From: an uncultured delta proteobacterium
GTDB taxonomy: Bacteria > Desulfobacterota > Binatia > UBA9968
Direction of reading: 5' to 3'
Length of the DNA: 64,000 bases
NCBI GenBank assembly: GCA_963737905.1
Contig: CAVTUQ010000030.1
Coordinates: 1-64,000 of the forward strand
Shown here piece by piece: positions 2,212 to 49,150 of this stretch. The position numbers were made by a program, and so were the translations under genes. Each line of letters begins with the position of its first letter. Within the stretch, counting starts at the first letter, position 1. The notes beneath the pieces were generated by a model, which saw only the letters and a list, made by a program, of their open reading frames with translations, was not told where the DNA came from and ran no database searches.

Positions 2212-2226
2212 GCACTATCTGTGCCA
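2212..2226 (-). promoter_or_regulatory. sigma54 -24/-12 promoter for the entericidin-M48-BON cluster
   Basis: TGGCACAGATAGTGC (GG-N10-GC) about 45 nt upstream of the entericidin ATG. Confidence 0.7.
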
Positions 2227-2462
2227 GACCTTGCGATGAGGGAAAGGTTGTGTTTCCGATAGCTTCTTGAGGCTGTCAGAGTGAAATGAAGAGATGGCGC
2301 GTTAAAAGCGGCGAATCTCTCGACCAAAAGGTCGGCGGCTTAGATTCCTGAAGGTGGAACCGACTAATTTATTGCACCCATGAACCCACTTGAATTTAGG
2401 CTCTCGCGCTGCAAACTATCTTAAACAAAATCTAAAACTATCCCTTTTTCGGGTTTCCATAC

Positions 2463-2478
2463 TGGTCACACGCTTTGC
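2463..2478 (+). promoter_or_regulatory. sigma54-like promoter with one extra base
   Basis: TGGtCACACGCTTTGC is GG-N11-GC; removing one T gives the consensus; 27 nt upstream of ATG 2506. Confidence 0.4.
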
Positions 2479-2505
2479 CATTAAAGATTATCGTGGGAGG
2501 TAGTT

Positions 2506-2604
2506 ATGGTAAACGAAACTGAACTGTTCTACCTAGTGATCATGCTCTTGCTCACGCTGATCATACATCTCATTTTGAATACGAGGGATCCGCGGCGCCG
2601 TTGA
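2506..2604 (+). CDS. Small single-TM protein (32 aa)
   Basis: MVNETELFYLVIMLLLTLIIHLILNTRDPRRR; strong GGGAGGT RBS; positively charged tail. Confidence 0.55.
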   Translation: MVNETELFYLVIMLLLTLIIHLILNTRDPRRR

Positions 2605-2718
2605 GTTGACAACGGAAACAGAGCGGGTGCGATGGGAAACAGGTCCGGCCACCAGCGATGGTTGCCGTTGCAAAATTCTACGTGCGCAACGACTGTATGC
2701 AAACTCAAGGAGTAGGCT

Positions 2719-2889
2719 ATGCCCACTTATGAATTTCAATGTGAGAAATGCCGGAAGCGATTCGAACTCGCCTGTACCATCACGGAATATGAGCGGAAGG
2801 AAAAAAACATTAAGTGCCCAAAATGCGGCAGCACCAGGGTCAGGCGCCAAATTTCTGCCTTTGAAGTGAAAACGTCGAAGAAAAGCTGA
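2719..2889 (+). CDS. FmdB-family zinc ribbon protein (56 aa)
   Basis: MPTYEFQCEKC...F...CPKCGS; AAGGAG RBS. Confidence 0.9.
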   Translation: MPTYEFQCEKCRKRFELACTITEYERKEKNIKCPKCGSTRVRRQISAFEVKTSKKS

Positions 2890-2992
2890 CGTAGGCAGAA
2901 ATCCTTTCGAAGTCTAAACTCATAATTGCCCGGTTTTTCGACGAAGCATGGTAGTGGCTGCCCCAGGGATGCTAGCCTGCGCCGTTGTCGAT

Positions 2993-3390
2993 CTATAGCT
3001 CCGTGCCGCCCGTAATCAGGACTAATACACGATCAACACTTACCCGGTCTTCATCTAACAAGGCACGGTCGATGGCGATCTGACAGATGCCGAAGCGATC
3101 AATCCAGCTTACCAGCAGTAGATCACCATCGATATCGTAAAGTTCAAGATAATCCAGGTCCATTTTGGTTTGCGGATCGTCGTAGAAAACGATGATACCG
3201 CTACCTCCGGCTTCTTCATGTACTTTGGCATAGTCGGTTATCACTAATTGGCCCTTGTCTGGCGTCCATATGGCAAAAGAACATTCTCATGACGCAAATT
3301 CTCGCTGATGCGCATGGGCTCGCTTCGCGCCTCATTGTAGAGAAGCAATAACCCGGCAATCATAAACACGGGACAAAGAATTCTTCTCAT
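2993..3390 (-). pseudogene. Secreted hypothetical protein, frameshifted near 3270
   Basis: Signal peptide MRRILCPVFMIAGLLLLYNEARS; the first frame ends near 3245 and the protein continues in the 2993..3244 frame. Confidence 0.5.
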
Positions 3391-3417
3391 TTTTACGTCC
3401 CTCTATGCCCAAAATAG

Positions 3418-3432
3418 GCAAAGGACATGCCC
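3418..3432 (-). promoter_or_regulatory. sigma54 -24/-12 promoter
   Basis: GGGCATGTCCTTTGC (GG-N10-GC) 27 nt upstream of ATG 3390. Confidence 0.6.
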
Positions 3433-3624
3433 AAAGTAGATTTTAGCGCCGCGGACGTCGCGTGCTCGGGAACGCTTGAGATTTCAATCGCTAAGCTCGC
3501 AGCGAAAACGTGGTTCCTAAAGCTATCGCCTCGGGATTATCACGAATAGAAAAAATCCACGATTTTTCTTCTCAAAGATGCAAAAGAATAAGTGCTATCT
3601 CTTGCAATTGTGCGCGGAATATAT

Positions 3625-3639
3625 CGGCACATCTTTTGC
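3625..3639 (+). promoter_or_regulatory. sigma54 -24/-12 promoter
   Basis: CGGCACATCTTTTGC (GG-N10-GC) upstream of the nucleotidyltransferase. Confidence 0.7.
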
Positions 3640-3709
3640 GGATTTACATATAGAAATTTTTCTCTAGTCGTACGGCCTGACGGCGCTCAATCGACAAGGA
3701 GATAAACCC

Positions 3710-4669
3710 GTGATCGATATCACTGGTCTTGATAGATCTCTTCTTTGGGGACTCGTTTTGGCCGGAGGCGACGGCAAACGTTTACAAAACTATGTTCAGC
3801 AGCCCAAAGGGGAACAGTTACCAAAACAGTTTGTCAATTTCATCGGCCAACGTTCCATGCTCAAACACACGTTTCAGCGAGCAGAGAAGCTGATCCCTTC
3901 AAAGCAAATACTCACCATCGTCAGCAAGCAGCATCTCGCATATTTGGAAGTGCGCCGCCAACTTAACCGCCGTCCGGTAGAGACGGTCATCGTCCAGCCC
4001 ATGAACAAAGATACCGGTCCGGGGATACTTTTGCCCCTGATGTTTCTTTATAAGCGAAACCCCGAGGCAATCGTTGTGCTTTTTCCATCGGATCACTTCA
4101 TCCTTGAAGAAGAACGCTTCATAAAATATGTCTATCGTGCCGCCCAAGCAGTCAGCCATGACCCCACGCGTATGGTTCTTCTAGCGATCGAGGCCCATGA
4201 GCCGGAAACCGAGTACGGGTACGTTATGCCAACGCAAGACATGCGCAGACTCTGCCACTTCGGCACCAAATCGGTCTCGGCATTTATTGAAAAGCCGGAG
4301 CGGGACCTCGCCTTGCAACTCATGACGGCAGGCGGGCTATGGAATAGCATGACCATGGTCTTCAAACTCGATACGCTTTTGGAGCTGGTGCGAAAGGTGC
4401 ACCCCACTATCTATCTCAAGTTCTGTCGTATCCTTGAAGTTATTGGAACCACCGGCGAACAGCGAAGCATCAACGACCTGTACGAAGTGTTAGAACCGGT
4501 AAACTTTTCAAAAGCGATTATGGAGAAGATTGCTGAACGCTATCCCCAATCCGTATCAGTGCTTCCCGTCTCCGGGGTACTTTGGAGCGACTGGGGCTCC
4601 CAAGAGCGGGTCTTACAGGTACTTAGAAAACTGGGGGAGCGGCGTGGCGACGAGGCTCAAACAAACTGA
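3710..4669 (+). CDS. Sugar-phosphate nucleotidyltransferase (mannose-1-phosphate guanylyltransferase-like)
   Basis: LAGGDGKRL, PKQF, PSDH, YGY, FIEKP, WNS, WSDWG motifs; AAGGAG RBS. Confidence 0.9.
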   Translation: MIDITGLDRSLLWGLVLAGGDGKRLQNYVQQPKGEQLPKQFVNFIGQRSMLKHTFQRAEKLIPSKQILTIVSKQHLAYLEVRRQLNRRPVETVIVQPMNKDTGPGILLPLMFLYKRNPEAIVVLFPSDHFILEEERFIKYVYRAAQAVSHDPTRMVLLAIEAHEPETEYGYVMPTQDMRRLCHFGTKSVSAFIEKPERDLALQLMTAGGLWNSMTMVFKLDTLLELVRKVHPTIYLKFCRILEVIGTTGEQRSINDLYEVLEPVNFSKAIMEKIAERYPQSVSVLPVSGVLWSDWGSQERVLQVLRKLGERRGDEAQTN

Positions 4670-4853
4670 GAGCTAATGCATCATGAACAGAATGAACGAG
4701 AACCTCAAAAACAAGGTTACGTGCGGAGCGCCCTTACTTCGTCCAGCGCGGAACCAATCCCCAGAGCTTTATTTATCCCGCTAGGAAGAACCATTAGGGC
4801 CCCGCGATTGAAAACCTCAGCTGCGCATGGATTAAGTCCGACACTTAACCGAT

Positions 4854-5339
4854 TTAAGCTGCCTCCCTTTTGCCCGTTTGTACGAGGCTAGCAATCTGCG
4901 GCTCAATCAGTCGCGCGAAGTCCTTGTAAGATAACCGCACCGTTTGTACATGATTGCCGGCGTTGAAGTAGATGTGTTCGTCTTTCTCCAGCGCTGGGTC
5001 GACGAACACAGGCAGTCCAAACAAATTACCAAACGGCGGCATGGCTCCGATCTCGCATTCAGGGAACCGGGAGATGAATTCGGCCTCCGTCGCTAGCTTC
5101 ACCGCTTTGGCGCCGAGACTCGCTTTGGCCGTATTCAAGTTGATCCTCTGACTCCCCGGGATTACTCCCATGACCAAACGACCATCTACGTCGAGCACAA
5201 CGACCTTGGCCATCTCTTTGCCGGAGAAATGCTGTTGCGCAGCAATCTCCTGGGCCGTATAGGCCAACAGATGATTGTAAACCTCGTAAGAAACCCTCGC
5301 TTCATCAAGCAGTTCTTTGAGCCTTCTCAAAATCGGCAT
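4854..5339 (-). CDS. YbaK/EbsC-family aminoacyl-tRNA deacylase
   Basis: AYTAQEIA, MAKVV, CEIGAMPPFG, FNAGNH. Confidence 0.9.
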   Translation of the reverse strand: MPILRRLKELLDEARVSYEVYNHLLAYTAQEIAAQQHFSGKEMAKVVVLDVDGRLVMGVIPGSQRINLNTAKASLGAKAVKLATEAEFISRFPECEIGAMPPFGNLFGLPVFVDPALEKDEHIYFNAGNHVQTVRLSYKDFARLIEPQIASLVQTGKREAA

Positions 5340-5393
5340 ATATACCTCCTTGCCTTATGCGTGAACCATGATTTCAGTCGGATAATTTGATGT

Positions 5394-5409
5394 ACAAGAA
5401 TCATGCCGA
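5394..5409 (-). promoter_or_regulatory. sigma54-like promoter (GG-N10-GT variant)
   Basis: TCGGCATGATTCTTGT about 55 nt upstream of the YbaK ATG. Confidence 0.45.
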
Positions 5410-5587
5410 TGTTTTGTGACCCGAAATGCAGTCCATTTCCGGCATTTCGTCAAAGCTATTGTGAGACGGACAAAAGATCATTCCTCAGCCTTGCGAATCT
5501 TGTCGGCGCTGGCTTCTCACAGTTGAGAAGAGAAAAATTGCACTCGGATAGCCCACGCCGGCGTCTTTGAACCGCACAATCATCTAG

Positions 5588-5602
5588 GCAAGCAAGGTGC
5601 CA
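5588..5602 (-). promoter_or_regulatory. sigma54 -24/-12 promoter
   Basis: TGGCACCTTGCTTGC, consensus match. Confidence 0.7.
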
Positions 5603-5760
5603 CCATCTCTCGTTGTTTTGTCGCCGCGCGGAACGAGGTTATTTTGCATCATTGGGAAAAAGATTCTGCTTCGAGTTGCAGAAATAAGAGAGCCGTACCG
5701 GTGGTTCGCAAGAGAGCCGCTAGAAGCGGTTTAGTCTTGGTACTTTTTTCTGAGCGGCGG

Positions 5761-5775
5761 TGGCACTGTTCTTGC
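5761..5775 (+). promoter_or_regulatory. sigma54 -24/-12 promoter for Hsp20-DksA
   Basis: TGGCACTGTTCTTGC, consensus match 35 nt upstream of ATG 5811. Confidence 0.75.
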
Positions 5776-5810
5776 GCTCGAAGTTTAATGAAAGCTTGTG
5801 GGTTTATCTG

Positions 5811-6230
5811 ATGCCTAACGAAAAAAACTTCTTCTCCTTTCCCCTTCGACTCTCCACCGAGGTCCAGTGGCTATTCGATGAAATGATCCACCGTCCGTGG
5901 GACTGCAACCGTCAACTGCGTACCTGGAGCCCTTCGATAGATTTCTATGAGACCTTGGACGCGTTCGTCCTTGAAGCCGACCTCCCCGGAGTTAAGGCCG
6001 AAGACGTTCATGTCAAGGTCGACGGAAATGATCTCGTGGTTCAGGGATGCCGCGTGGTGGAGCTCAGCCGCAGTGACGGCCGGTTTCACACCATGGAACG
6101 TTGCGCCGGTGAATTTATGCGTCGAATAGGCCTTCCAGAGTCCGTGGATGAAGAAGGCATACATGTGCAGTTTAATGACGGTGTGCTGAAATTGGTCATT
6201 CCGAAAGTAAAGACGCTAATAGAGGCCTAA
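5811..6230 (+). CDS. Hsp20/alpha-crystallin small heat shock protein
   Basis: WSPSIDFYE, ADLPGV, ERxxGEFxRxIxLP, DGVLKLVIPK; start moved from GTG 5760, which lies in the promoter. Confidence 0.92.
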   Translation: MPNEKNFFSFPLRLSTEVQWLFDEMIHRPWDCNRQLRTWSPSIDFYETLDAFVLEADLPGVKAEDVHVKVDGNDLVVQGCRVVELSRSDGRFHTMERCAGEFMRRIGLPESVDEEGIHVQFNDGVLKLVIPKVKTLIEA

Positions 6231-6278
6231 AGCCCTCAGGCGACCGCCCCTGGCTACGTGGCGGGAAGGAGCAAAACC

Positions 6279-6629
6279 ATGGATACGAATGAAGGGATCA
6301 CATACTGGGATAAACTCCGGCTACGCGCACTCGAGGTCGAACGAACGATAAAGCATCTTGAAAAAGAGCGGCAGGAAGTCGAAGAAAACACCGAGTGGGC
6401 CGACAGAGCTGCATATGAAAGCAGGGCTAGCCTCCTTGACGGCCTAATCACGTTGTACCGCAACGAAATGGAAAAGATCGAGGATGCTCATAGCCGAGTC
6501 GAGGAGCGCAGCTACGGTCTCTGCCTAGCGTGCCATGAACCCATCGATGCCGATCGATTAGAGATCTACCCTGCGGCGCAATTCTGCATTGACTGCCAAG
6601 ACTATCGTGAAAGGCTGAGAACGGGTTGA
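6279..6629 (+). CDS. TraR/DksA C4 zinc-finger protein
   Basis: Coiled coil with EWADRA tip; SYGLCLAC...RLEIYPAAQFCIDC; AAGGAG RBS. Confidence 0.88.
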   Translation: MDTNEGITYWDKLRLRALEVERTIKHLEKERQEVEENTEWADRAAYESRASLLDGLITLYRNEMEKIEDAHSRVEERSYGLCLACHEPIDADRLEIYPAAQFCIDCQDYRERLRTG

Positions 6630-6672
6630 GTGCCTCTGTGCTGTTCTGGCCGCACGAAGCGGCGCTCCAACA

Positions 6673-8271
6673 CTACTTTTGCGCTTGCCCAAGTCGCACC
6701 CGCAGAAACTTTTCACTAGCCCGTGCGAGCTCCTCCCGCGATAGCTCCGTATTCAATTTGAGGCAGATTTGCTGAAGGCAATCTCATCGACGGGTTCGTA
6801 CGCGGTCTTCTGCTTCAAATATATCTCCCACCGACCGTCGGAGACATCCTTCCCTTCAGCTTCTCTTCGAGCCAGTCGTTTCTTCGTCGTCTCGTCAGAG
6901 GCAACGCAATGAATTAATAACAAGGGAATCCCGTGCTTCTCTGCCAACCGAACGATCTTCTCTCGATGCGCTTTTTGGCCGAAGGTGGCGTCGAGAATAG
7001 CGCCCTCGCCTTCCAGAATTTGTTTCTCCGCCTCACGTGCGATCTTTGCATAGGTTTTTTCCGTCATATCGGGACTGTAGATGTCCTCATTAAATGGAAC
7101 AGCCTGAGGGCCGTGCCTCCCGGCGATCGCTTTGCGTACCGTGTCCGAGTTGATCACCGGCATTCCGAGACGCTCCCCTAGCTCTCGCGCCAACGTGGAT
7201 TTGCCGCTGCCGGTCAAACCGCAGACAATCAAAAGAAAAGGCTTCAAGGATAACCAAGTGAACCGCGAGGCATAATGAAAATAACGCGGCGCATTGCTAT
7301 TAGGTCCGCCGGAACGAAGCGCTTCGACCTTTCCGCGCACGAGCGCGCGGTAGCATTGATAGTACGGCAGCAACACGGGCAAATCGGGATCATGCAGCAG
7401 CTCGAGATAACGAGTCAAAAAAGGCCGCACCATGGCTCCACCGCCGCGAACTTCCAAATCCATCAAGAGGAAGGCGATTTCTGAGGCGAGATCGCAGCAA
7501 CGCAACTGCTGGCTGAATTCGATACAGTCGAAGATTTGAATGCCTTCCGGCGCAAAGCATATATGCTCGCAATGCAGGTCGCCATGCACATCGCGAATCC
7601 ACCCTTCGTTGAAACGTCGCATGAACAAATCGTGATGCCCATCAATGAACTGAGCGCCGAATTTCTGCAGCGCTGCAAGGGCATCCCCGTCAATAAAGGT
7701 TCCAGAAAACGGCTGGAGCTCGCCGAGGTTTTCCTCCCACTCTTTTTGAATACTCGACGGATACTGAAAAGCCGCGCCTCTTTTGACCTGCTCCGCACCG
7801 GCATGGAACGGCGCCAGAACTTCCGCCACGGCGCGCATCATCTCCGGCGTCAACTGGCCAGAATCGAGCAGAAACGGCAACATGCGCCGCTCGGGCAATC
7901 GTCGCATGACGAGCGTATATTCCACCGGTTCGCTCAATCCGCCGAGCCGCCAACCGGTTGAATCGAAACTGATGGGCATGACCGCTAAATAAACCGACGG
8001 TGCCAATCTTCGATTGAGATGCAATTCTTCGTTGAGGAAATGGCGCCGCTTGCCCAAGGTTGAATAGTCGAGAAACGAAAAACGGACCGCTTTCTTTACC
8101 TTATAGACAAGATCGTCGAGTTAAAAATACATGCGAAATATGAGTCTCTTTGTGTGCGACTTTCGACGGTCGCTTCGGGTAAAAACCCGGCTCCAGCATT
8201 GCCGAAACAAGTTCGGACTGTGAGCCCCCACCGGGTTTCTTTTTGACACTAGTTTGCATTTCCTCACGCAT
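6673..8271 (-). pseudogene. Bifunctional aminoglycoside-phosphotransferase-like / AAA_33 kinase (Rv2004c-like), with two apparent frameshifts
   Basis: N-terminal ETHISHVFL, shift near 8118 into VYKVKK...FLDYSTL; HGDLH, FDCIEF, GLTGSGKS; shift near 6770 into CLKLNTELSREELARASEKFL. Confidence 0.8.
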
Positions 8272-8353
8272 GGCTCCTCACCCACCAGAAGTCTCTCACA
8301 ACTCAGGCTCGGGAAAAAAGAGATGCGAGAAACGGAAATAAATTTTAGAAACA

Positions 8354-8396
8354 AGCCGTTCGATCTCGCCGAATCGCATCAGAGGATCGAACGGCT
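8354..8396. terminator. Hairpin downstream of the ferritin-like gene
   Basis: 12-bp perfect inverted repeat AGCCGTTCGATC / GATCGAACGGCT. Confidence 0.5.
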
Positions 8397-8405
8397 CCGG
8401 GGTGC

Positions 8406-8921
8406 TCATGCTGCTTTTAGATTCTCCTTGAGGAATTCGAGTAGCTCTATGTGCTTTTCCGAATCTCTTATCATCGAGTCCAAAAGAATTTTAAAAACGC
8501 CATGGTAGTATCCGCTGCTCTCCTTTACAAGCGTCTTGCATTCCCGGATGCCTTCCTTTTCAAGCTGGATGAATGCATCGGTGTTGGCCCGAAGCTGGCT
8601 GTTCGTCTCGGCGAGATTGGCCGCGCCTTCAAGGCTTCCTTCCGGTTTATTCCACATGAGGCTACCTCTCAAGGTCGCAATCATCGCGTGAATGACCGCG
8701 CGATGCTTTTCCTCGTCCGAAATAATGAGCTGCAAGAGAAACCTCGTGATGGGGTTCGGCATCTCGGTCAACAGCCTCCGATACTGCTCCAGGGACTTCT
8801 CTTCTTTCGCCTCATGGCTCTCGAACTCATTGAGCAAACGCTCGACAGGAGATATTTCCGGCGACCCCCTCGGATCTATTTTGGACGCGAACAGTGCCGC
8901 CATATCAGAAATTTCTTCCAT
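8406..8921 (-). CDS. Ferritin-like (rubrerythrin-type) four-helix protein
   Basis: Duplicated helix pairs with DEEKH and DSEKH motifs; AGGAGGAG RBS before ATG 8921. Confidence 0.7.
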   Translation of the reverse strand: MEEISDMAALFASKIDPRGSPEISPVERLLNEFESHEAKEEKSLEQYRRLLTEMPNPITRFLLQLIISDEEKHRAVIHAMIATLRGSLMWNKPEGSLEGAANLAETNSQLRANTDAFIQLEKEGIRECKTLVKESSGYYHGVFKILLDSMIRDSEKHIELLEFLKENLKAA

Positions 8922-8973
8922 AGACTCCTCCTTTTTCCCTTTCCGGTTCCGTCCGTCTTGGACGGCTCGCACT

Positions 8974-9546
8974 CTAAGTACTTCTGACGGTTGGTGTCTC
9001 ATGAAATACACGGCCCGGCTTCCACGGCGTTCCAACCGCGGGCAGCAGCCAACGATCCAGCCCGATCCAGCCGGCGTTGCGCCACGCAAGCGTCAGCCAC
9101 GTTGCGATCGCAAATAACAGGGCGTTCGTTGAAGCCGATCCTGCCATGATGAAACTCCAGTTCATGAGTCCGCCAGAAAAAGCCGCTAGTCCCGTGAATG
9201 CGCCGAGAATCAGTCCCAACGCCACCAACAGCTCACCAAAAACAATGATTTTTGAAAACCAGGTATGGGCCTCTGTATTAATCAAGAACTCGATAAAAGA
9301 ACGATACCAATCGAAAGCGATCACCGGCTTCGGGATCATCTTCACGCCCCTTTTCCAATACTCCAACAGGGCTTCGCCGGTTCCCATCCACTTCGGATCA
9401 ATAAATTTATGCCAGCCTGCCTCAAACCAAGCCCAGCCCAAATAAAGGCGAAGCGGCAACCAAAGCCAACCGAACCGCGTATCTGCGAAAACAAGTCGTG
9501 CCAGTCGTGGTTCCTCTATCACTACTCGTTCTTCATTCCTTTTCAT
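8974..9546 (-). CDS. DoxX/DoxD-family membrane protein
   Basis: LRLYLGWAWFEAGWHK, WYRSF, GELLVALGLILG, AGSASTN, AGWIGLDRW; GAGGGG RBS. Confidence 0.88.
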   Translation of the reverse strand: MKRNEERVVIEEPRLARLVFADTRFGWLWLPLRLYLGWAWFEAGWHKFIDPKWMGTGEALLEYWKRGVKMIPKPVIAFDWYRSFIEFLINTEAHTWFSKIIVFGELLVALGLILGAFTGLAAFSGGLMNWSFIMAGSASTNALLFAIATWLTLAWRNAGWIGLDRWLLPAVGTPWKPGRVFHETPTVRST

Positions 9547-9598
9547 TGATCCCCTCTTTTTCTTGAACACAGATTTGCTACCCTGAAGGAGGGTTTGC

Positions 9599-9613
9599 GC
9601 AAGGCTCGTGCCA
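9599..9613 (-). promoter_or_regulatory. sigma54 -24/-12 promoter for doxX-ferritin-kinase
   Basis: TGGCACGAGCCTTGC, perfect consensus. Confidence 0.8.
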
Positions 9614-9763
9614 GAAGAAAAACTAAACTGTTTTCGGATTCTTTTCATTCTAACGAAAAAAAATTCCCAATTTTCGGGATTTAGCCGATGAGATTTCCCA
9701 ATCCTGCGAAAAAAATTTCCCGCGGCTAAGACAAGACATGAAAACTGTAAGGAAAACCATCGG

Positions 9764-9778
9764 AGGCACAGAAATAGC
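9764..9778 (+). promoter_or_regulatory. sigma54-like promoter for pfp-gap-CBS
   Basis: AGGCACAGAAATAGC (GG-N10-GC). Confidence 0.55.
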
Positions 9779-9831: not shown

Positions 9832-11148
9832 ATGGCACAAGAACCTTCAAAAACAATGAACGATCACATTGGCATCTTGGTGGGAGGCGGTCCTGCACCC
9901 GGAATCAATGGGGTTATCAGCGCCCTCACCCTCGAGGCGCGCAGTCGCGCCCATAGAGTAATTGGTCTCTACGACGGCTTCCAGTGGCTAATAAAAGGGG
10001 ATACCAAGCACGTTAAGGAACTGGATCATGACGACGTTTCTCGGATTCACTTCCAAGGCGGGTCGTTCCTTAATACGTCGCGAGCCAATCCGACAAAAAA
10101 CACAGGCGATCTCCAAAATGTCATTACCACCCTCGATGCTCTAAAGATCGGTTATCTCGCCACGATCGGCGGTGACGATACCATGTTTGCCGCGAGCCAA
10201 GTCGCAAAGCAGGCCGCAGGCCGAATCCGCGTTTGTCACATACCGAAGACCATCGATAACGATCTGCCGCTTCCGGGAGAGATCCCCACATTCGGCTTCG
10301 AGACCGCCCGGCAACACGGCTTTGAGCTGGTACAAAATTTAATGGAGGACTCGCGGACCACCGGTCGCTGGTATTTCGTGGTCGTCATGGGACGTTCCGC
10401 GGGCCACCTGGCCCTGGGCATCGGCAAAGCCACCGGCGCAACGCTGACGATTATTCCGGAGGAGTTTCGCGGCCCGGTCCATTTGGAAACGGTCTGCGAT
10501 ATCCTTGAGGGAGCCATTTTGAAACGAAAGGCTTTGTGGAACCGCGCCGACGGCGTGGCGGTGGTTGCCGAGGGATTGCTCGAACGCGTTCCAGCAGAGG
10601 AGCTTGCCTCCATCGAGGGTGTTCGTATCACCCATGACAGCTACGGCCACTTGCGCCTCGCAGAGCTGGATTTAGCGTACATCCTAAAGACCCTGTTGGA
10701 ACAGCGCTTCGCCGCTCGCGGAGCGCCGATCACCGTAGTTCATAAGAACATCGGCTATGAACTGCGGTCCGCTTCACCCATCGCTTTTGATTGCGAATAC
10801 GTTCGTACTCTTGGCTATGGGGCGGTGGAATTTTTTCTGAATCGCAGTCAGGACGCCAAAAAGCTGAACGGCGCTTTGATCTGTCTCGTGGATGGCAAGC
10901 TGCAATTTCTGGATTTCACCCAGCTCCTCGATCCAAAAACCGGAAAATCGCGGATTCGTGTCGTGGATATCAACAAACCGTCTTACAAAATCGCCCGCGA
11001 GTATATGATCCGATTGGAACGAGAAGATCTTGAAGACAAAGAAAAACTTAGAGTCCTGGCCGAGGCAGCATCGAGCCACAGCAAGAGCTACAGCCCGGAT
11101 GAATTCCGAACCAGATTTCAACATCTGCTAGACCCAGGAGGAGGGTGA
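9832..11148 (+). CDS. pfp: Pyrophosphate-dependent phosphofructokinase
   Basis: GGGPAPG, GGDD and PKTIDND (PPi-type residues), MGR, GYELR; alternative start at 9856. Confidence 0.88.
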   Translation: MAQEPSKTMNDHIGILVGGGPAPGINGVISALTLEARSRAHRVIGLYDGFQWLIKGDTKHVKELDHDDVSRIHFQGGSFLNTSRANPTKNTGDLQNVITTLDALKIGYLATIGGDDTMFAASQVAKQAAGRIRVCHIPKTIDNDLPLPGEIPTFGFETARQHGFELVQNLMEDSRTTGRWYFVVVMGRSAGHLALGIGKATGATLTIIPEEFRGPVHLETVCDILEGAILKRKALWNRADGVAVVAEGLLERVPAEELASIEGVRITHDSYGHLRLAELDLAYILKTLLEQRFAARGAPITVVHKNIGYELRSASPIAFDCEYVRTLGYGAVEFFLNRSQDAKKLNGALICLVDGKLQFLDFTQLLDPKTGKSRIRVVDINKPSYKIAREYMIRLEREDLEDKEKLRVLAEAASSHSKSYSPDEFRTRFQHLLDPGGG

Positions 11149-12162
11149 ATGAATGCCAGAGTAGCGATCAACGGATTTGGCCGCATTGGACGATTGACCT
11201 TGCGGACTATTCTCGGGCGGCACAAGAAGAATCTGACGATCGTCGCCATTAACGACATGGCCGATCCGCAAACCAACGCGCACTTGTTTCGCTACGACTC
11301 GACGTACGGAATATTCCCGGGCAAGGTTGAAGTAGGAGAAGGGATTCTCAAAATTGACGGGCTCAACGTTGCGGTCACGAATCAGAAAGATCCTTCACGC
11401 CTGCCATGGAGACAATTGGGCATCGACATCGTTATTGAGTCCACCGGCGTCTTCACGGATGCGGCCCAGGTGCGGGCTCATCTCGAAGCTGGCGCCAAAA
11501 AGGTGATCATCACCGCTCCGGCAAAAGACGAGGATATTACGCTGGTTTTGGGAGTCAACGATGCTGCCTATGATCCCCGCAAACACCACATCGTCTCTAA
11601 TGCATCCTGCACGACCAACTGTTTGGCGCCGGTTGCGAAGGTGATCCACGACCATTTCGGCATTGAGCGCGGTTTGATGACGACCATCCACTCTTACACG
11701 AACGATCAGCGGATTTTGGATCTCATGCACACAGACCTGCGACGAGCTCGCGCTGCCGCCATGAATATCGTTCCCACCAGCACCGGCGCGGCAAAGGCCA
11801 TCGGCCTGGTCATGCCGGAACTCAAAGGAAAACTGCACGGCTTGTCTTTGAGGGTGCCGACTTCGACGGTTTCCGTGGTAGACCTCGTAGCGGATCTCAA
11901 AAAATCGGCTTCGGTGGAGGATTTAAACCATGCCCTCAAGCAAGCCGCCGAGGGCAAACTCGAGGGAATATTGGCCTATTGCGACGAGCCCTTGGTTTCC
12001 AGCGATTTTCGTGGTAATTCGGCTTCATCGATAGTGGATGGCTTATCCACCGTGGTGCTAGAGGACAAAATGGCGAAAGTTCTGTCTTGGTACGATAACG
12101 AATGGGGCTATAGTTGCCGCGTCGGCGACCTGGCGACACTGATGGCAGAAAAAGGACTCTAG
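11149..12162 (+). CDS. gap: Type I glyceraldehyde-3-phosphate dehydrogenase
   Basis: [25 protein letters not shown]. Confidence 0.97.
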
Positions 12163-12175
12163 GAGGAATCCGCAA

Positions 12176-12565
12176 ATGATTGCCAAAGATATAATGACCA
12201 GAGATATCATCACCGTGACTCCCACGATGACAGTGAAAAATTTGGCGATGACCCTGATCAAAAATCAGATCAGCGGTGCGCCGGTCTCGGCCAGGAACGG
12301 CAAGATCGTCGGGGTCGTTTCCGAAGCCGATATCGTCGCCAAGAGGGGTAAAGACGTTAAGGCGATCATGAGCAAGAAAATCATCAGCGTCAAAGAAGAG
12401 ACGCCGGTGGAGCAAATCGCCCAGCTCATGACGACCCACAAGATAAAACGGCTTCCGGTCATGCGCGACGATAAAGTCGTGGGCATCGTTAGCCGCGCCG
12501 ATATCGTCAGCGCCATCGCCTTGGGCAAACACGTCGCGCTCCATACCCCGGTTTACGATCTGTAA
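12176..12565 (+). CDS. Stand-alone CBS-pair protein
   Basis: Two CBS repeats (ISGAPV...GVVSEAD; IKRLPV...GIVSRAD). Confidence 0.9.
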   Translation: MIAKDIMTRDIITVTPTMTVKNLAMTLIKNQISGAPVSARNGKIVGVVSEADIVAKRGKDVKAIMSKKIISVKEETPVEQIAQLMTTHKIKRLPVMRDDKVVGIVSRADIVSAIALGKHVALHTPVYDL

Positions 12566-44364: not shown

Positions 44365-44843
44365 GTGCCGATCCAACTGTACCTCGACACCAACGTACTT
44401 TGTCGTCGTTCGATGATCAGGGGATCAGCAGGGTGCGCGTTGAAACTGATGCGTTCGAGCGGATTTTGGAGAAAGTAAGACGAGCCGATGCCACCCTAAT
44501 ATAGTTAGCTCCGAAATCCTAGTTTTTGAGATTCAAAGAATTATCGAACCGGCCAAGAGAGCGAAGGCTTCTGTCTATCTCCGTATGGCGCGCACTTATC
44601 ATGCCATGACGGATGAAACGCTTACCATAGCCAGAACAGTTGAAGACAGATTCAAATTGAGCTACGCGATGCACTACAATGCAGTAAGCGCGCTTTTGGA
44701 CGGGAGCGAATATTTTCTAACGTGCGACGATGGAATAACAAAGAGGTTTAAGTGATGTTCCCTTTCTGCTACCATTGGAATGCATCGCTGGATCTTGGGA
44801 GTAATGAATCCGGCAGCATTTTGTCGACACTGTGCGATGGTGA
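44365..44843 (+). pseudogene. PIN-domain (VapC-like) toxin, multiply disrupted
   Basis: Fragments LYLDTNVLCR, FDDQ...RVETDA, SSEILVFE, RDAL, YFLTCDD, VMNP across several frames with stops. Confidence 0.75.
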
Positions 44844-45073: not shown

Positions 45074-48000
45074 ATGGCCAGCGAAACTGGCAAACTCTTT
45101 CCGTCTAACAACGTCGGTCTCTTCTCTGACTATTTCCTGAGCAAGAGACTACCCGCCGAGTCCCGCTATGGAGTAGCGAAAAACTAGCTGCCGAGAACTG
45201 CCTCGCAAAGATCCTCGCCCAGTACAAGAAGTTCACCGCCACCTACAAATCCCCCAACGAGGCGCAAACGGAAGATGATTTTATCCGTCCCGTTTTGGCG
45301 CTACTTGGCTATTCCTACATCGTACAGACCTCGCTCAAACATAAAGGAAAAAGCAACCAGCCTGACTACGCTCTCTTCCCCGACGACAGGACGAAGAAAG
45401 AGGCCGGTTCTTTCAAAGTCAAAGAACAAGAAGCTTTCTACGGGAAGGCATTGGCCATTTGTGACGCTAAGTATTGGGGGCGCCCGTTAGATATCAAGCT
45501 TAGCGACAAAAAGGACACTTTCACGAATATCAATCCCAGTTTCCAGATCGTCAATTACCTCGTCGGCGCCAACGTCGATTGGGGCATCCTAACCAACGGT
45601 AGACTCTGGCGTCTTTACTACCAAAAGGCATCGTCGCGCTCATCGACTTTCTACGAGGTTGACCTAGAAGAGCTCCTCCTGAAGGGTGACTCGGAACGAT
45701 TTCTTTACTTCTATCTCTTCTTCCGTAAAGAGGCGTTGCTCAAAGATAGCCAGGGCAAAACTTTTTTAGAAAATGTCCTCGAAGGTTCGACCAATTATGC
45801 CTCCGAGTTAAGCGACAGCTTAAAAGACAAAGTCTTTGACAAAATTTTCCCCCACCTAGCGCGCGGCTTCGTACACTATCGCAAGAAAGAACTAGGCGTG
45901 CAGACGGAGACTGATGAGTCACTGAAGGAGACTTACAGCGCCACCCTAACCCTTCTGTATCGACTTCTCTTCATTCTCTATGCCGAGGCCCGCGACCTGC
46001 TGCCAGTAGAAGAACAAGCATACCACCATTATAGCCTAACCAGATTTAAGCAAAGAGTGGCGGAATTACGCGACAAAAGATCAACATTGACTGAGCTTTC
46101 AACTGATCTTTGGAGCGATTTGGACACTCTGTTTAAGATCATTGATGTCGGTGACGCTAAACTGAACGTTCCCACTTACAACGGAGGTCTTTTTAGCCAA
46201 AAGAATCCGAAAAATGATTTCCTGAAGAAAAACAGGGTGCCTGACCCATGGCTCGCTGAGGCACTCGATTATCTCACTCGCGACATTGACAAGGAAAGCA
46301 GCAAGCCACACTTCATCGACTACAGCGAGTTAGAGGTACGCCACCTGGGAAGCATCTATGAAGGCCTGCTGGAATTTCACCTGATGATGGCCCAGGAGGA
46401 CAAAGGTGTCGTCAAAGAGAAAGGGCGAGAAGTTTATAAGCCGGTCAGTGATGTCCAGAATCCAAAGGAGATCGTTAAGAAAGGAGAACTTTACCTAGAG
46501 AATGACAAGCATCAAAGGAAAAGTACCGGCAGCTATTACACGCCTGACTACATCGTCAAATACATTGTTCAGAATACCGTCGGGCCGGTTCTGGAAGAGA
46601 AAATGAAGAAGGGCGAGAAGCTCTTCGGGGAGATCGCGTTGTTAAGAGCCAAGGCCAAGCGAGCCACCGGCGCAAAGAGAATCTTGGCTCAGGAGCAACA
46701 AAAAGAGGGAAGCAGCCGATGAGCTGTTCTCTTTAAAGATTCTCGACCCGGCGATGGGCAGCGGCCATTTTCTAGTGGAAACCGTTGATTTCCTGTCCGA
46801 CCACATCATCAAGTTTTTGACGGATCACCCCGACAACCCGGTTTTGGAAGAGATTGAAAATCTTCGTTCTACGATTCTAATAGACCTCAAGAAAAAAGGC
46901 ATCGATATAGACGAGCAAAGGCTTACCCCTACCAATCTCGTCAGGCGCATGGTTATGAAGCGTTGCATTTATGGCGTGGATCTAAATCCAATGGCTGTCG
47001 AGCTTGCCAAGCTCTCTCTGTGGCTTCACTCCTTCACCCTTGGTGCCCCGCTCTCCTTCCTCGACCATCATTTGAAATGCGGAAACAGTTTGATAGGGAC
47101 AACTGTAAACAGGGTCAAAACATCCATGCAGGAAAAAAAGGAGAGCGAGGAAACGACTATAGCGGACTGGGAAGGCCAAGAGCGAACCTACTCTGGTCAA
47201 TCATCTCTTTTCCTCTTTGGATCGCACTTCGCTGGGCTTCTGTCGGCCACAGAGTTGATGCAACAAGTGGGGGAACTAACAGACTCTACGTTCGAAGAGG
47301 TTCAAGAGAGCCAACAGAAATACGAAAAAGCCGCCGAGGCCCTGAAGCCTTTCAAACTCATGCTTAACCTCTGGACTAGCGAATATTTCGGCAACAAAGA
47401 CGCCCAACGCTTTCTCACCCATGGTGGCGACATAGAGGCTTTTCAAAAGAGCACGAATCGACTACCGGAAAAGACAAAAGCTCTTCGAGAAATCAGTGAC
47501 ACCCTCTCTGAGAGCAGAAGCTTCTTTCACTGGGAGCTGGAATTCCCGGAGGTCTTCTATAAAGGGACACGTGAAAAGGAAAACGCCGGCTTCGATGTAA
47601 TCATTGGCAATCCACCCTGGGGAGCTGCGTTGGAAAACAATGAGAAGAAATATCTTGGATCGGTTTATCCAACAACCGCTAAGAATTTTGACACCTACGT
47701 GGCCATGATCGAGAAGAACGTGGGAATACTGAGGAGCGCAGGCACGTTAGGGTTTATTATACCTAATGCTTGGCTAACCGGGGTTTCATACATCCCACTT
47801 AGAAGATTTTTGCTTATAAACGGAGTCCTGCTTGATTTTGTGAATCTTCCGTATGACGTTTTCTCCGACGCTTACGTCGACAGTGCCACCATAGTCTTTG
47901 AAAAGCGCGATCCCAGCGCGAATCCAATCTTTGGCAAAGTAAGAGTTATCAATTTCGGTAAACGAGATCGTGTCACAGACATTAATCTCCACGTGTCGAA

Positions 48001-49150
48001 ACGAGTCTATTTAGACTATGGTGTTTGGGCAAACGACCCGTACCTTGCTTTCCGAATATCTCTCTCCTCAGGCGACTACTCGATTGAGAAGAAGCTATCG
48101 GACAACGTTGTCCCGCTACAAAGCATCGCGGAAATTGACCGCGGGTTAGAGGCCTACAGCAAGTATCGGCAGTCTCCGGATGAAATAGGACGAAAAATAT
48201 ACCATTCCGCCTCTAAAATTGGAGAGTCCTACATTAAACAATTTCAAGGCACTCTACGGAGATATATACTCTCCGAAGATGGAGAACTCTGGGTGAAGTG
48301 GGGATCACATCTTGCGGAGTCTCCGGCAATCGAATTCTTTGAGAAACCAAGAATTCTGCTTCGGCGCCTAATCAGCAGACAGTTTCGTATAATGGCGACA
48401 TTTACCGAGGACAAATTTGCCAACGATTCCTCGACCTTTGATATAATTCTAAGAGACGAACGCTACAACTTGTTCTTTGTTCTCGCTATACTTAATTCAA
48501 CTCTTTTTTCCCATTTCCAAGTCAAAAGATCTCAACTCGCCCAGAGAGATGATTTCCCAAAACTCTCCCTTGAAGAGGCTCGAACCTTCCCCATCCGGAA
48601 CATCACGTTTCAAACATCGTCAAAGCAACGAGCGAATCTTTTGGAAAAAAGCAAATCTCTTTACGGGCGTTGCATGGCCAAGAGTGATTTTCTCTGTGTG
48701 ACCGGGTTCGTGGAGCATTGTTTAAAACAAAAGCCGGAACAGACAGACGTGGTGCATGACCTCTTAGCGTTTTTGGCACAGCGAATGATAGAGCTAAACA
48801 AACAGGTCCTGACAGAGACGAAAGGATTCTTGCATTGGCTGGAGATAACGATCGGCGCAAAGGTCGATGCGCTTAAAAACAAGACCAAACTCTTCGCTTA
48901 TCACGACGGGAGCCTAGAGGAACTGCTGGAGGTAGTAAAGGAAAACCGAAGGATCCTCAAAATCAATCCTGCTAGCAAAGAGTTTTTTGATCCACTTAAA
49001 GATGCCTTTGAAAAAAGTTTGGCGAAACTTTCGCCCCTTAAAAAGAGCATTACTACAACCGACCACCTCATTGACCTGATTGTTTACAGACTCTACGGCT
49101 TAACTGACGAGGAAGCTAAGCTAGTGAAAAATGAAGCTGAATCGCCATGA
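45074..49150 (+). CDS. Type IIG/IIL fused restriction endonuclease - N6-adenine methyltransferase (about 1350 aa), split by two frameshifts
   Basis: NEAQTE, PDYALF...CDAK nuclease, ILTNG, YNGGLF, LGSIYEGLL, GSYYTP, DPAMGSGHF, NPPW, TaqI_C-like TRD; shifts near 45163 and 46705. Confidence 0.88.

Follow-up and report, generated by a model that had tools for sequence, protein, structure and literature searches.

A predicted family-wide sigma54 regulon with a shared tandem enhancer in an uncultured Binatia bacterium, and the deletion of its probable activators from their loci

This work concerns a 64,000-nucleotide stretch of DNA (the window) at the start of contig C30 (CAVTUQ010000030.1) of an uncultured bacterium of the Binatia, and in particular an island at positions 2212-9778 that is rich in -24/-12 motifs, the promoter boxes of the alternative sigma factor sigma54. 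Seven of its nine boxes (3418, 3625, 5394, 5588, 5761, 9599 and 9764) are predicted promoters of one family-wide sigma54 regulon with a shared tandem enhancer. We consider it probable that this enhancer is read by two bacterial enhancer-binding proteins (bEBPs), here designated EbpX and EbpY, and that both activators were deleted from their loci in this genome, one in the window and the other on contig C2.

The assembly (G000) measures 6.7 Mb at 87.5% completeness, and its genes were called with a simple codon model. It was compared with 89 genomes of the family, among which a relative of the same genus is referred to as G001, and with 299 genomes outside the family. The rpoN gene, which any sigma54 reading presupposes, was found on C37, and the assembly encodes 31 full PF00158 (bEBP) domains; sigma54 promoters are therefore expected to be common in this genome.

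Sigma54 promoters of the island

A first-pass annotation, made from the sequence alone, had listed nine sigma54 boxes, and all nine are present (Table 1; minus-strand boxes are named by their low coordinate). Scores were obtained with a matrix trained on 188 sites of the same genome, with the genes at 1-12.5 kb of the window left out. Six boxes score between 12.4 and 19.1, and three are weak by this measure: 5394(-) scores 9.5, 9764(+) scores -1.7, and 2463(+), which as assembled has 11 bases between GG and GC, fails, reaching 14.5 with one base ignored. Conservation in orthologs, proposed earlier as a check, backs each of the three. Box 5394 is the conserved promoter of ybaK, with an equivalent box before ybaK orthologs and a match in G001; box 9764 is a variant of the form GGCAY-N8-GC that recurs in 10 of 12 relatives' pfk promoters with the enhancer described below, at 66 or 75-79 bp from it; and the G001 ortholog of box 2463 is perfect, without the extra base. 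These data support the prediction of all nine boxes as sigma54 promoters.

The boxes are well above chance, as had been supposed: the four divergent gaps of the island (1410 bases) hold six sites scoring at least 12, against a mean of 0.09 and a maximum of 2 in 500 dinucleotide shuffles. Among 4251 upstream regions genome-wide, sites of at least 12 were found in 177 on the gene strand, in 56 on the other strand and in 15 after shuffling, and the genome total is 376 such non-coding sites with 26 divergent pairs. The density is not unique to the window, however, and four other 7.6-kb stretches hold 6-8 sites each. The remark that promoters beyond about 13 kb lack comparable boxes proved accurate, with none of the 29 upstream regions after 12.6 kb scoring 9 or more; one later box (44592-44606, minus strand, score 14.3) is intergenic and has no called gene in front.

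A tandem enhancer shared by seven promoters

The main enhancer is a tandem of the 16-bp palindrome TTC[TGC]CA-N4-TG[AGC]GAA, repeated with a period of 31-32 bp. It was discovered by footprinting the upstream regions of 29 ybaK orthologs, which succeeded where unguided dyad counting in 313 sigma54 upstream regions of G000 recovered no enhancer. A matrix was then built from 23 relatives, leaving out G000 itself, five loci without a box and one near-duplicate. With this matrix, tandems were found in four intervals between the window boxes (Table 1), and in the gap 2226-2463 the main enhancer was not found (score -1.3). Three tandems of at least 18 lie in the four divergent gaps, compared with 0.002 in shuffles. 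All seven boxes sit 64-129 bp from a tandem palindrome and are phased with it.

Fifteen tandems in the whole genome score at least 18 (eight on C12, three on C30, two on C39 and two in coding DNA), and 12 of them have a box of at least 11 nearby, versus 4.6% of random non-coding places. All eight C12 tandems are accompanied by boxes, so that the regulon extends beyond the island. The two tandems on C39 fit more poorly and lie inside a copper cluster. The strict pattern occurs in 65 of the 89 family genomes, with none for a reversed control, and in 2 of the 299 genomes outside the family. Across the loci retrieved, a box accompanies 103 of 126 tandems, and 43 of the tandems are flanked by boxes on both sides; the distances between tandem and box peak at 54, 64, 74-76, 84-86, 94-96 and 104-108 bp, indicating helical phasing, for which p-values are overstated, the loci being related. 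Tandems spaced and phased in this way have the geometry expected of bEBP enhancers, which confirms the earlier suggestion that divergent promoter pairs share one. No match to the integration host factor consensus was detected in the four gaps.

A second enhancer and block junctions

The 2212 promoter is predicted to be part of a separate small regulon with an enhancer of its own, a pair of TCGACC-N4-GGTCGA-type palindromes at 2299-2335 with a 21-bp period, 90 bp from 2226. This pair is kept in the entericidin promoters of eight relatives, which have a box at the position equivalent to 2212, and in a paralog of G000 itself (C32:75725); it scores 22.1 at 2299-2335, and no other gap exceeds 3.7. 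Genome-wide, the matrix for this second enhancer lacks specificity, with a box at 5 of its 77 non-coding hits, and membership is therefore claimed for the two entericidin promoters only. For the 2463 box no enhancer was found.

The similarity of G001 to the window begins at 2418, and the block to the left is not adjacent in G001; hence, 2212/2463 is a junction of two blocks. The gap 5340-5810 likewise joins a ybaK block (G001 match to 5550) and an hsp20/dksA block (match from 5586). Within the hsp20/dksA pair, box 5588 forms the left half; it has no own gene here and faces a universal stress protein (USP) gene in G061 (L262). Of the initial picture of four divergent pairs, the outward boxes are borne out in every gap and the main enhancer in three of the four, but four genuine pairs are not confirmed: 2212/2463 joins two unrelated blocks, and 5588 is not the own promoter of ybaK.

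Target genes

Targets in the window code for nucleotidyltransferase-like, YbaK, Hsp20, DksA/TraR, DoxX and ferritin-like proteins, an APH/AAA_33 kinase, pyrophosphate (PPi)-dependent phosphofructokinase (PPi-Pfk), GAPDH and a CBS protein. Those on C12 include USP, CBS, hemerythrin, formate dehydrogenase with a formate/nitrite transporter, glucan phosphorylase, 2-hydroxyacyl-CoA dehydratase-type genes with BcrAD-type activators and an MtrB/PioB porin cluster. Dehydratase-type enzymes are oxygen-sensitive, and the target kinds overlap with those of the mycobacterial DosR regulon. They overlap also with the NmpR targets given in the accessible portion of PMC11841059; because of these overlaps, the target set may be read as a low-oxygen programme.

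Candidate activators in related genomes

Two bEBPs found in relatives, EbpX and EbpY, are the most likely readers of the main enhancer. EbpX is an NtrC-type response regulator present in 48 of the 89 genomes, counting matches of at least 67% identity and a fragment in G001. A heme-PAS (FixL-like) kinase is encoded directly upstream of it in 20 of 22 loci, and in 12 of 22 the enhancer lies at EbpX's own 5' end. We predict that the kinase is a FixL-type heme-PAS sensor: its PAS domain matches the heme domain of B. japonicum FixL (E 1e-27), with the aligned proximal His and distal Arg positions kept, which we take to be the heme-ligand and distal residues of FixL, and the heme-ligand His is retained in 21 of 22 PAS domains. 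Protoglobins were also encountered. A protoglobin-PAS histidine kinase is encoded within an enhancer-controlled island of G013 (L017:10444-12120), and G000 has a protoglobin domain at C7:451157-451675 (L337), which was rejected as sensor kinase because its reading frame encodes no kinase domain.

EbpY consists of AAA+ and Fis-type helix-turn-helix (HTH) domains only and is 314 aa long in almost every one of the 120 matches listed. It is present in 58 of the 89 genomes (at least 60% over its 112 C-terminal residues, not counting two hits interrupted by stops). Its recognition helix (ISLSSLYRK) is near-identical to that of EbpX (LSLSTLYRK), and its loop reads GSFTGA in 19 of 20 loci and GAFTGA in one. 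GSFTGA is counted as an active bEBP loop variant in the accessible part of PMC4641369. The EbpY gene ends a doxX-ferritin-ferritin operon in relatives, where it immediately follows the second ferritin-like gene in 17 of 20 loci, and the operon is under enhancer and box in 12 of 20; at 20 doxX loci, EbpY is intact in nine and split in one. Receiver-like sequence is kept in frame upstream of 2 of the 20 EbpY genes (L333, L335), which suggests that EbpY descends from a response regulator that lost its receiver.

Of the 69 genomes that have EbpX or EbpY, 59 contain the enhancer pattern, versus 6 of the 20 that have neither, kin among them not being independent; the pattern is found in 15 of 21 genomes with EbpY only and in 10 of 11 with EbpX only. 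EbpX and EbpY fall into one clade of a quick tree (Shimodaira-Hasegawa-like approximate likelihood ratio test, 99), and no protein of G000 is inside it. The third subgroup of this clade (59-65% identity to EbpX) has the helix LSRSSLYRK; it was rejected as a reader, its loci having TGTCCC-N6-GGGACA-type palindromes and no main enhancer. The genes of this subgroup (L121, L160-L169, L173, L174) stand among BON, M48 and small membrane-protein genes.

Loss of the candidate activator genes from their loci

Neither activator was found in the assembly of G000. The best match to the EbpY profile scores 318 bits versus more than 650 for members, the best match to EbpX has 36-38% over the C-terminal third of EbpX, and the S[LI]S[ST]LYRK helix has no match in six frames. 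The first-pass statement that no AAA+ activator is encoded here thus remains valid for the island, but the absence is secondary, as relatives encode EbpY inside the doxX operon and the window carries a deletion at that very place. Compared with G001 (blastn, L158), about 1.6 kb is missing at 8260-8275, namely most of the second ferritin-like gene, EbpY and the promoter of the APH/AAA_33 kinase gene, and the missing local activator is attributed to this deletion. Both ends of the deletion share a short motif, and the junction is bridged without an insert by one independent contig (run X3, record 23, 8206-8862).

At the C2 locus a primase-like gene is truncated to about 87 codons, which abut an RpoD-like gene; in G004 the kinase and EbpX lie between the two. 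Out of 32 related metagenome contigs, 22 are without the kinase-EbpX unit, four are intact and six are too short, and at least seven of the 22 keep a 3' EbpX remnant. The intact copies are nested among unit-less contigs, which points to repeated loss of the unit at this locus. Remnants that consist of the HTH end only adjoin the RpoD-like gene in L176, L178, L179, L184, L185, L187, L249 and G074:C8:319313. Genes for the RpoD-like sigma factor and the primase-like (PriCT) protein accompany the kinase-EbpX unit, often under the main enhancer (G000 C2:621462-623328; L104, L107, L111).

Alternative explanations

Several points weigh against the reading of the seven-box regulon as served by EbpX and EbpY, both since deleted in G000. 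The link between the two proteins and the enhancer is drawn from position, from the autoregulatory placement and from joint occurrence in genomes that are themselves related, and the activator tree was made by a quick method. Ten of the 69 genomes with an activator are without the strict pattern, and 6 of the 20 with neither still match it. G049 (7 contigs, 98% complete) has strong enhancers and neither EbpX nor EbpY; this genome and the activator-less matches fit recurrent orphaning, and equally another reader. The window enhancers are undecayed (ybaK 35 versus 37 in G001), which fits poorly with long orphaning, and EbpX or EbpY may lie in the unassembled part of a genome that is 87.5% complete. 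Moreover, heme-PAS sensors also respond to nitric oxide (NO) and carbon monoxide (CO). As to the present state of the regulon in G000, we would give orphaning slightly less than an even chance; service by an activator copy in the unassembled part appears doubtful and a takeover by another bEBP unlikely.

The rival that retains the most credit, though we regard it as quite improbable, has the enhancer read by another bEBP still in this genome, EbpX and EbpY being merely targets or neighbours. It would account for intact enhancers in the absence of both proteins in G000, G049 and G074, and 31 bEBP domains offer candidates, that at C22:51399 being closest in the helix. No bEBP of G000 has the S[LI]S[ST]LYRK helix, however, the C22 gene is surrounded by unrelated genes, and the enhancer both lies over the EbpX 5' end in 12 of 22 loci and tracks EbpX and EbpY across genomes. 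The bEBPs of G000 near other promoter clusters (C9, C11/C19, C39, C22, C43) were rejected as readers, with no matching helix or enhancer.

A further alternative keeps equal wiring and changes the signal to NO, CO, redox or energy stress, which would turn the system into a general dormancy regulon. The USP, CBS, Hsp20, YbaK and DksA/TraR targets are general stress genes, and the formate/nitrite transporter and ferritin-like proteins among the targets also agree with it. Yet the nearest matches of the kinase PAS are FixL and DosP, both oxygen sensors, a protoglobin kinase lies in one relative's island, and hemerythrin is found among the targets together with the oxygen-sensitive dehydratase type; we therefore hold another signal to be distinctly improbable.

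An assembly artefact could concern the window and C2 loci only. The assembly-only indels at 3265, 6765, 6774 and 8119 and the limited completeness speak for it, but with the X3 contig bridging the window junction without an insert, and 22 of 32 contigs at C2 likewise lacking the unit, at least seven of them with the 3' remnant, this is very unlikely. The first-pass proposal that a single trans-acting activator switches on the whole island draws on outward boxes in all four gaps and the main enhancer in three of them, and is extremely improbable, as the stretch 2226-2463 has no main enhancer and a different, conserved palindrome pair serving 2212 instead, and in G001 the block to the left of 2418 does not adjoin the remainder.

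Other features of the window and genome

The features of the window are collected in Table 1.

Table 1 Sigma54 boxes, enhancers, genes and the deletion junction in the window
Feature	Position	Strand	Evidence
Sigma54 box of entericidin-M48-BON-small membrane protein block, predicted second regulon	2212..2226	-	Score 14.2; relatives' entericidin promoters
Second enhancer (predicted)	2299..2335		Palindrome pair conserved in relatives
Sigma54 box with one extra base	2463..2478	+	G001 ortholog; precedes 32-aa membrane peptide (2506-2604) and FmdB zinc ribbon (2719-2889)
Sigma54 box for gene 3390-2993 (frameshift near 3265 absent in kin)	3418..3432	-	Score 12.4; orthologs with box and enhancer
Main enhancer tandem, common to 3418(-) and 3625(+)	3537..3584		Score 24.0 (interval 3432-3625); 128.5 and 64.5 bp to boxes
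Sigma54 box for mannose-1-P guanylyltransferase-like gene (3710-4669)	3625..3639	+	Score 17.3; PF00483
YbaK-type aminoacyl-tRNA deacylase gene, target	4854..5339	-	PF04073
Sigma54 box, ybaK promoter	5394..5408	-	ybaK orthologs; G001
Main enhancer tandem, best-scoring of the genome	5482..5529		Score 35.3 (interval 5408-5588), relatives-only matrix
Sigma54 box without own gene	5588..5602	-	Score 15.3; G001 alignment; L262 gene order
Main enhancer, one strong and one weak palindrome	5643..5690		Tandem score 14.2 (interval 5602-5761); palindromes 13.6 + 0.7; 64.5 and 94.5 bp to 5602 and 5761
Sigma54 box for hsp20 (5811-6230) and DksA/TraR zinc-finger gene (6279-6629)	5761..5775	+	Score 18.5; Pfam
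APH/AAA_33 kinase gene, frameshift at 8119 absent in kin, own sigma54 promoter deleted	6753..8271	-	Pfam; promoter in G001
Deletion junction, about 1.6 kb of relatives' DNA missing	8260..8275		blastn to G001 L158
Ferritin-like gene remnant, codons 1-37	8296..8409	-	86% identical to G001 protein over 37 aa; rubrerythrin-like family by ESM Atlas
First ferritin-like gene, doxX operon	8406..8921	-	Orthologs 45-84% in equivalent operon; no Pfam hit; fold predicted from ExxH motifs
DoxX/DoxD-family membrane protein, first gene of activator operon in relatives	8974..9546	-	Pfam
Sigma54 box, doxX operon	9599..9613	-	Score 19.1; conserved before doxX orthologs
Main enhancer tandem, common to doxX and pfk promoters	9664..9710		Score 20.2 (interval 9613-9764), pattern match; 74 and 77 bp to boxes
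Variant sigma54 box, pfk-gap-CBS	9764..9778	+	GG-N10-GC variant in 10/12 relatives with enhancer
PPi-dependent phosphofructokinase, GAPDH, CBS-domain gene, targets	9832..12565	+	NF041103 above cut-off; Pfam

Single-base frameshifts affect the genes at 2016-2164, 2993-3390 and 6753-8271. Those at 3265, 6765, 6774 and 8119 are not present in related short-read contigs and are, because of this, probably assembly errors. Further along the window, at 45295-49150, a low-GC gene resembling a restriction-modification methylase/endonuclease (labelled from its sequence) is read in two frames, split near 46720-46754. RNA run X10 contains close contigs on several target genes, none among those listed at 401-2400; it comes from one study, may be DNA and was not used as evidence.

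Outside the window, dense sigma54 clusters precede general-stress genes at C9:43-63 kb, C29:3-23 kb, C11:50-63 kb and C19:161-170 kb, their genes including CsbD, DUF4142, YihY, Hsp20 and a second pfk-gap pair. The main enhancer is absent from these four clusters. Identical bEBP genes at C11:53502 and C19:168506 adjoin the general-stress genes of such clusters.

Comparison with known systems

Comparisons with published work draw on the accessible portions of the cited articles. NmpRSTU of Myxococcus xanthus likewise connects a heme sensor kinase to an NtrC-type sigma54 activator and combines two palindromic sites about 14-15 bp apart with autoregulation (PMC11841059, PMC6211767); its targets include CBS, USP and hemerythrin genes, and Nmp is induced in hypoxia (PMC11841059). 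The Nmp site is GCGCA-N5-TGCGC (PMC11841059, PMC6211767), whereas the palindrome in Binatia is centred on 4 bases and ends in TT/AA. In most loci the sensor is an adjacent FixL-type heme-PAS kinase rather than the protoglobin phosphorelay of NmpU with NmpT and NmpS, and the protoglobin kinase of G013 agrees with NmpU at 23% over the globin. A receiver-less twin such as EbpY is not described for Nmp in those portions; the GSFTGA loop is common to EbpY and NmpR. NmpR itself (L142) was rejected as an EbpX ortholog (43% identity, another HTH helix, a separate branch). Judged by its predicted parts, the system works like NmpRSTU but is not a member of it.

The rhizobial FixL/FixJ pair shares the heme-PAS histidine kinase, but the adjacent regulator here is a sigma54 bEBP and not of the FixJ/LuxR type, and the kinase scores 244 bits against the FixL equivalog cut-off of 850. 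PspF, with PspA, is a case of a receiver-less bEBP with a neighbour gene. EbpY is like PspF-type proteins in having AAA+ and Fis-type HTH domains, no N-terminal regulatory domain and a fixed small neighbour gene; it differs in that this neighbour is ferritin-like and that the EbpY gene itself belongs to the regulon which EbpY probably reads, alongside a phosphorylated twin, and it scores 252 bits versus the PspF cut-off of 443.55. The DosR dormancy regulon includes USP, CBS, Hsp20, phosphofructokinase and an APH/AAA kinase, so its target kinds overlap with ours, a likeness in gene content as generally known; DosR is a NarL-type regulator acting at sigma70-family promoters.

The sigma54 regulome of Desulfovibrio vulgaris (PMC4641369) also comprises many bEBPs, each with its own upstream activating sequence, as well as upstream sites common to divergent operons, and two bEBPs can use one motif; no such motif or low-oxygen regulon is described in the accessible text. 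A literature search that reached few subscription journals gave no description of this enhancer or of sigma54 regulation in Binatia. The expectation of an undescribed regulatory system is therefore borne out for this enhancer and these activators, which are new by our comparison, but not for the kind of system, as NmpR already provides a low-oxygen regulon under sigma54 whose enhancer consists of tandem palindromes (PMC11841059).

Proposed mechanism and implications

In the mechanism that we propose, low oxygen would alter the state of the heme-PAS kinase, and phosphorylated EbpX would fire the enhancer-bearing sigma54 promoters, that of the doxX-ferritin-EbpY operon among them. EbpY would then amplify or sustain the response through the common enhancer, perhaps gated by the ferritin-like protein whose gene precedes its own. 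In G000, EbpY has been cut from the window and the kinase-EbpX unit from its usual place on C2, with the promoters left intact. A bolder version, which is speculative and in our estimate rather unlikely, is a two-tier low-oxygen switch of Binatia, where the heme kinase-bEBP pair induces a sensor-less twin and thereby sets up a self-sustaining hypoxia memory with di-iron ferritin-like gating, and where several soil lineages have repeatedly lost both activators, leaving the regulon silent or re-captured.

The system offers a testable enhancer, targets, sensor and activators for the low-oxygen response of an abundant uncultured soil group, and it would join a FixL-type sensor to sigma54 rather than to FixJ. 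The feedback design it suggests, with a phosphorylated activator inducing its sensor-less twin, had no published case in the same literature search. The window itself may represent such a regulon after both activator genes had been cut from their loci, and the fate of orphaned sigma54 promoters is here open to test.

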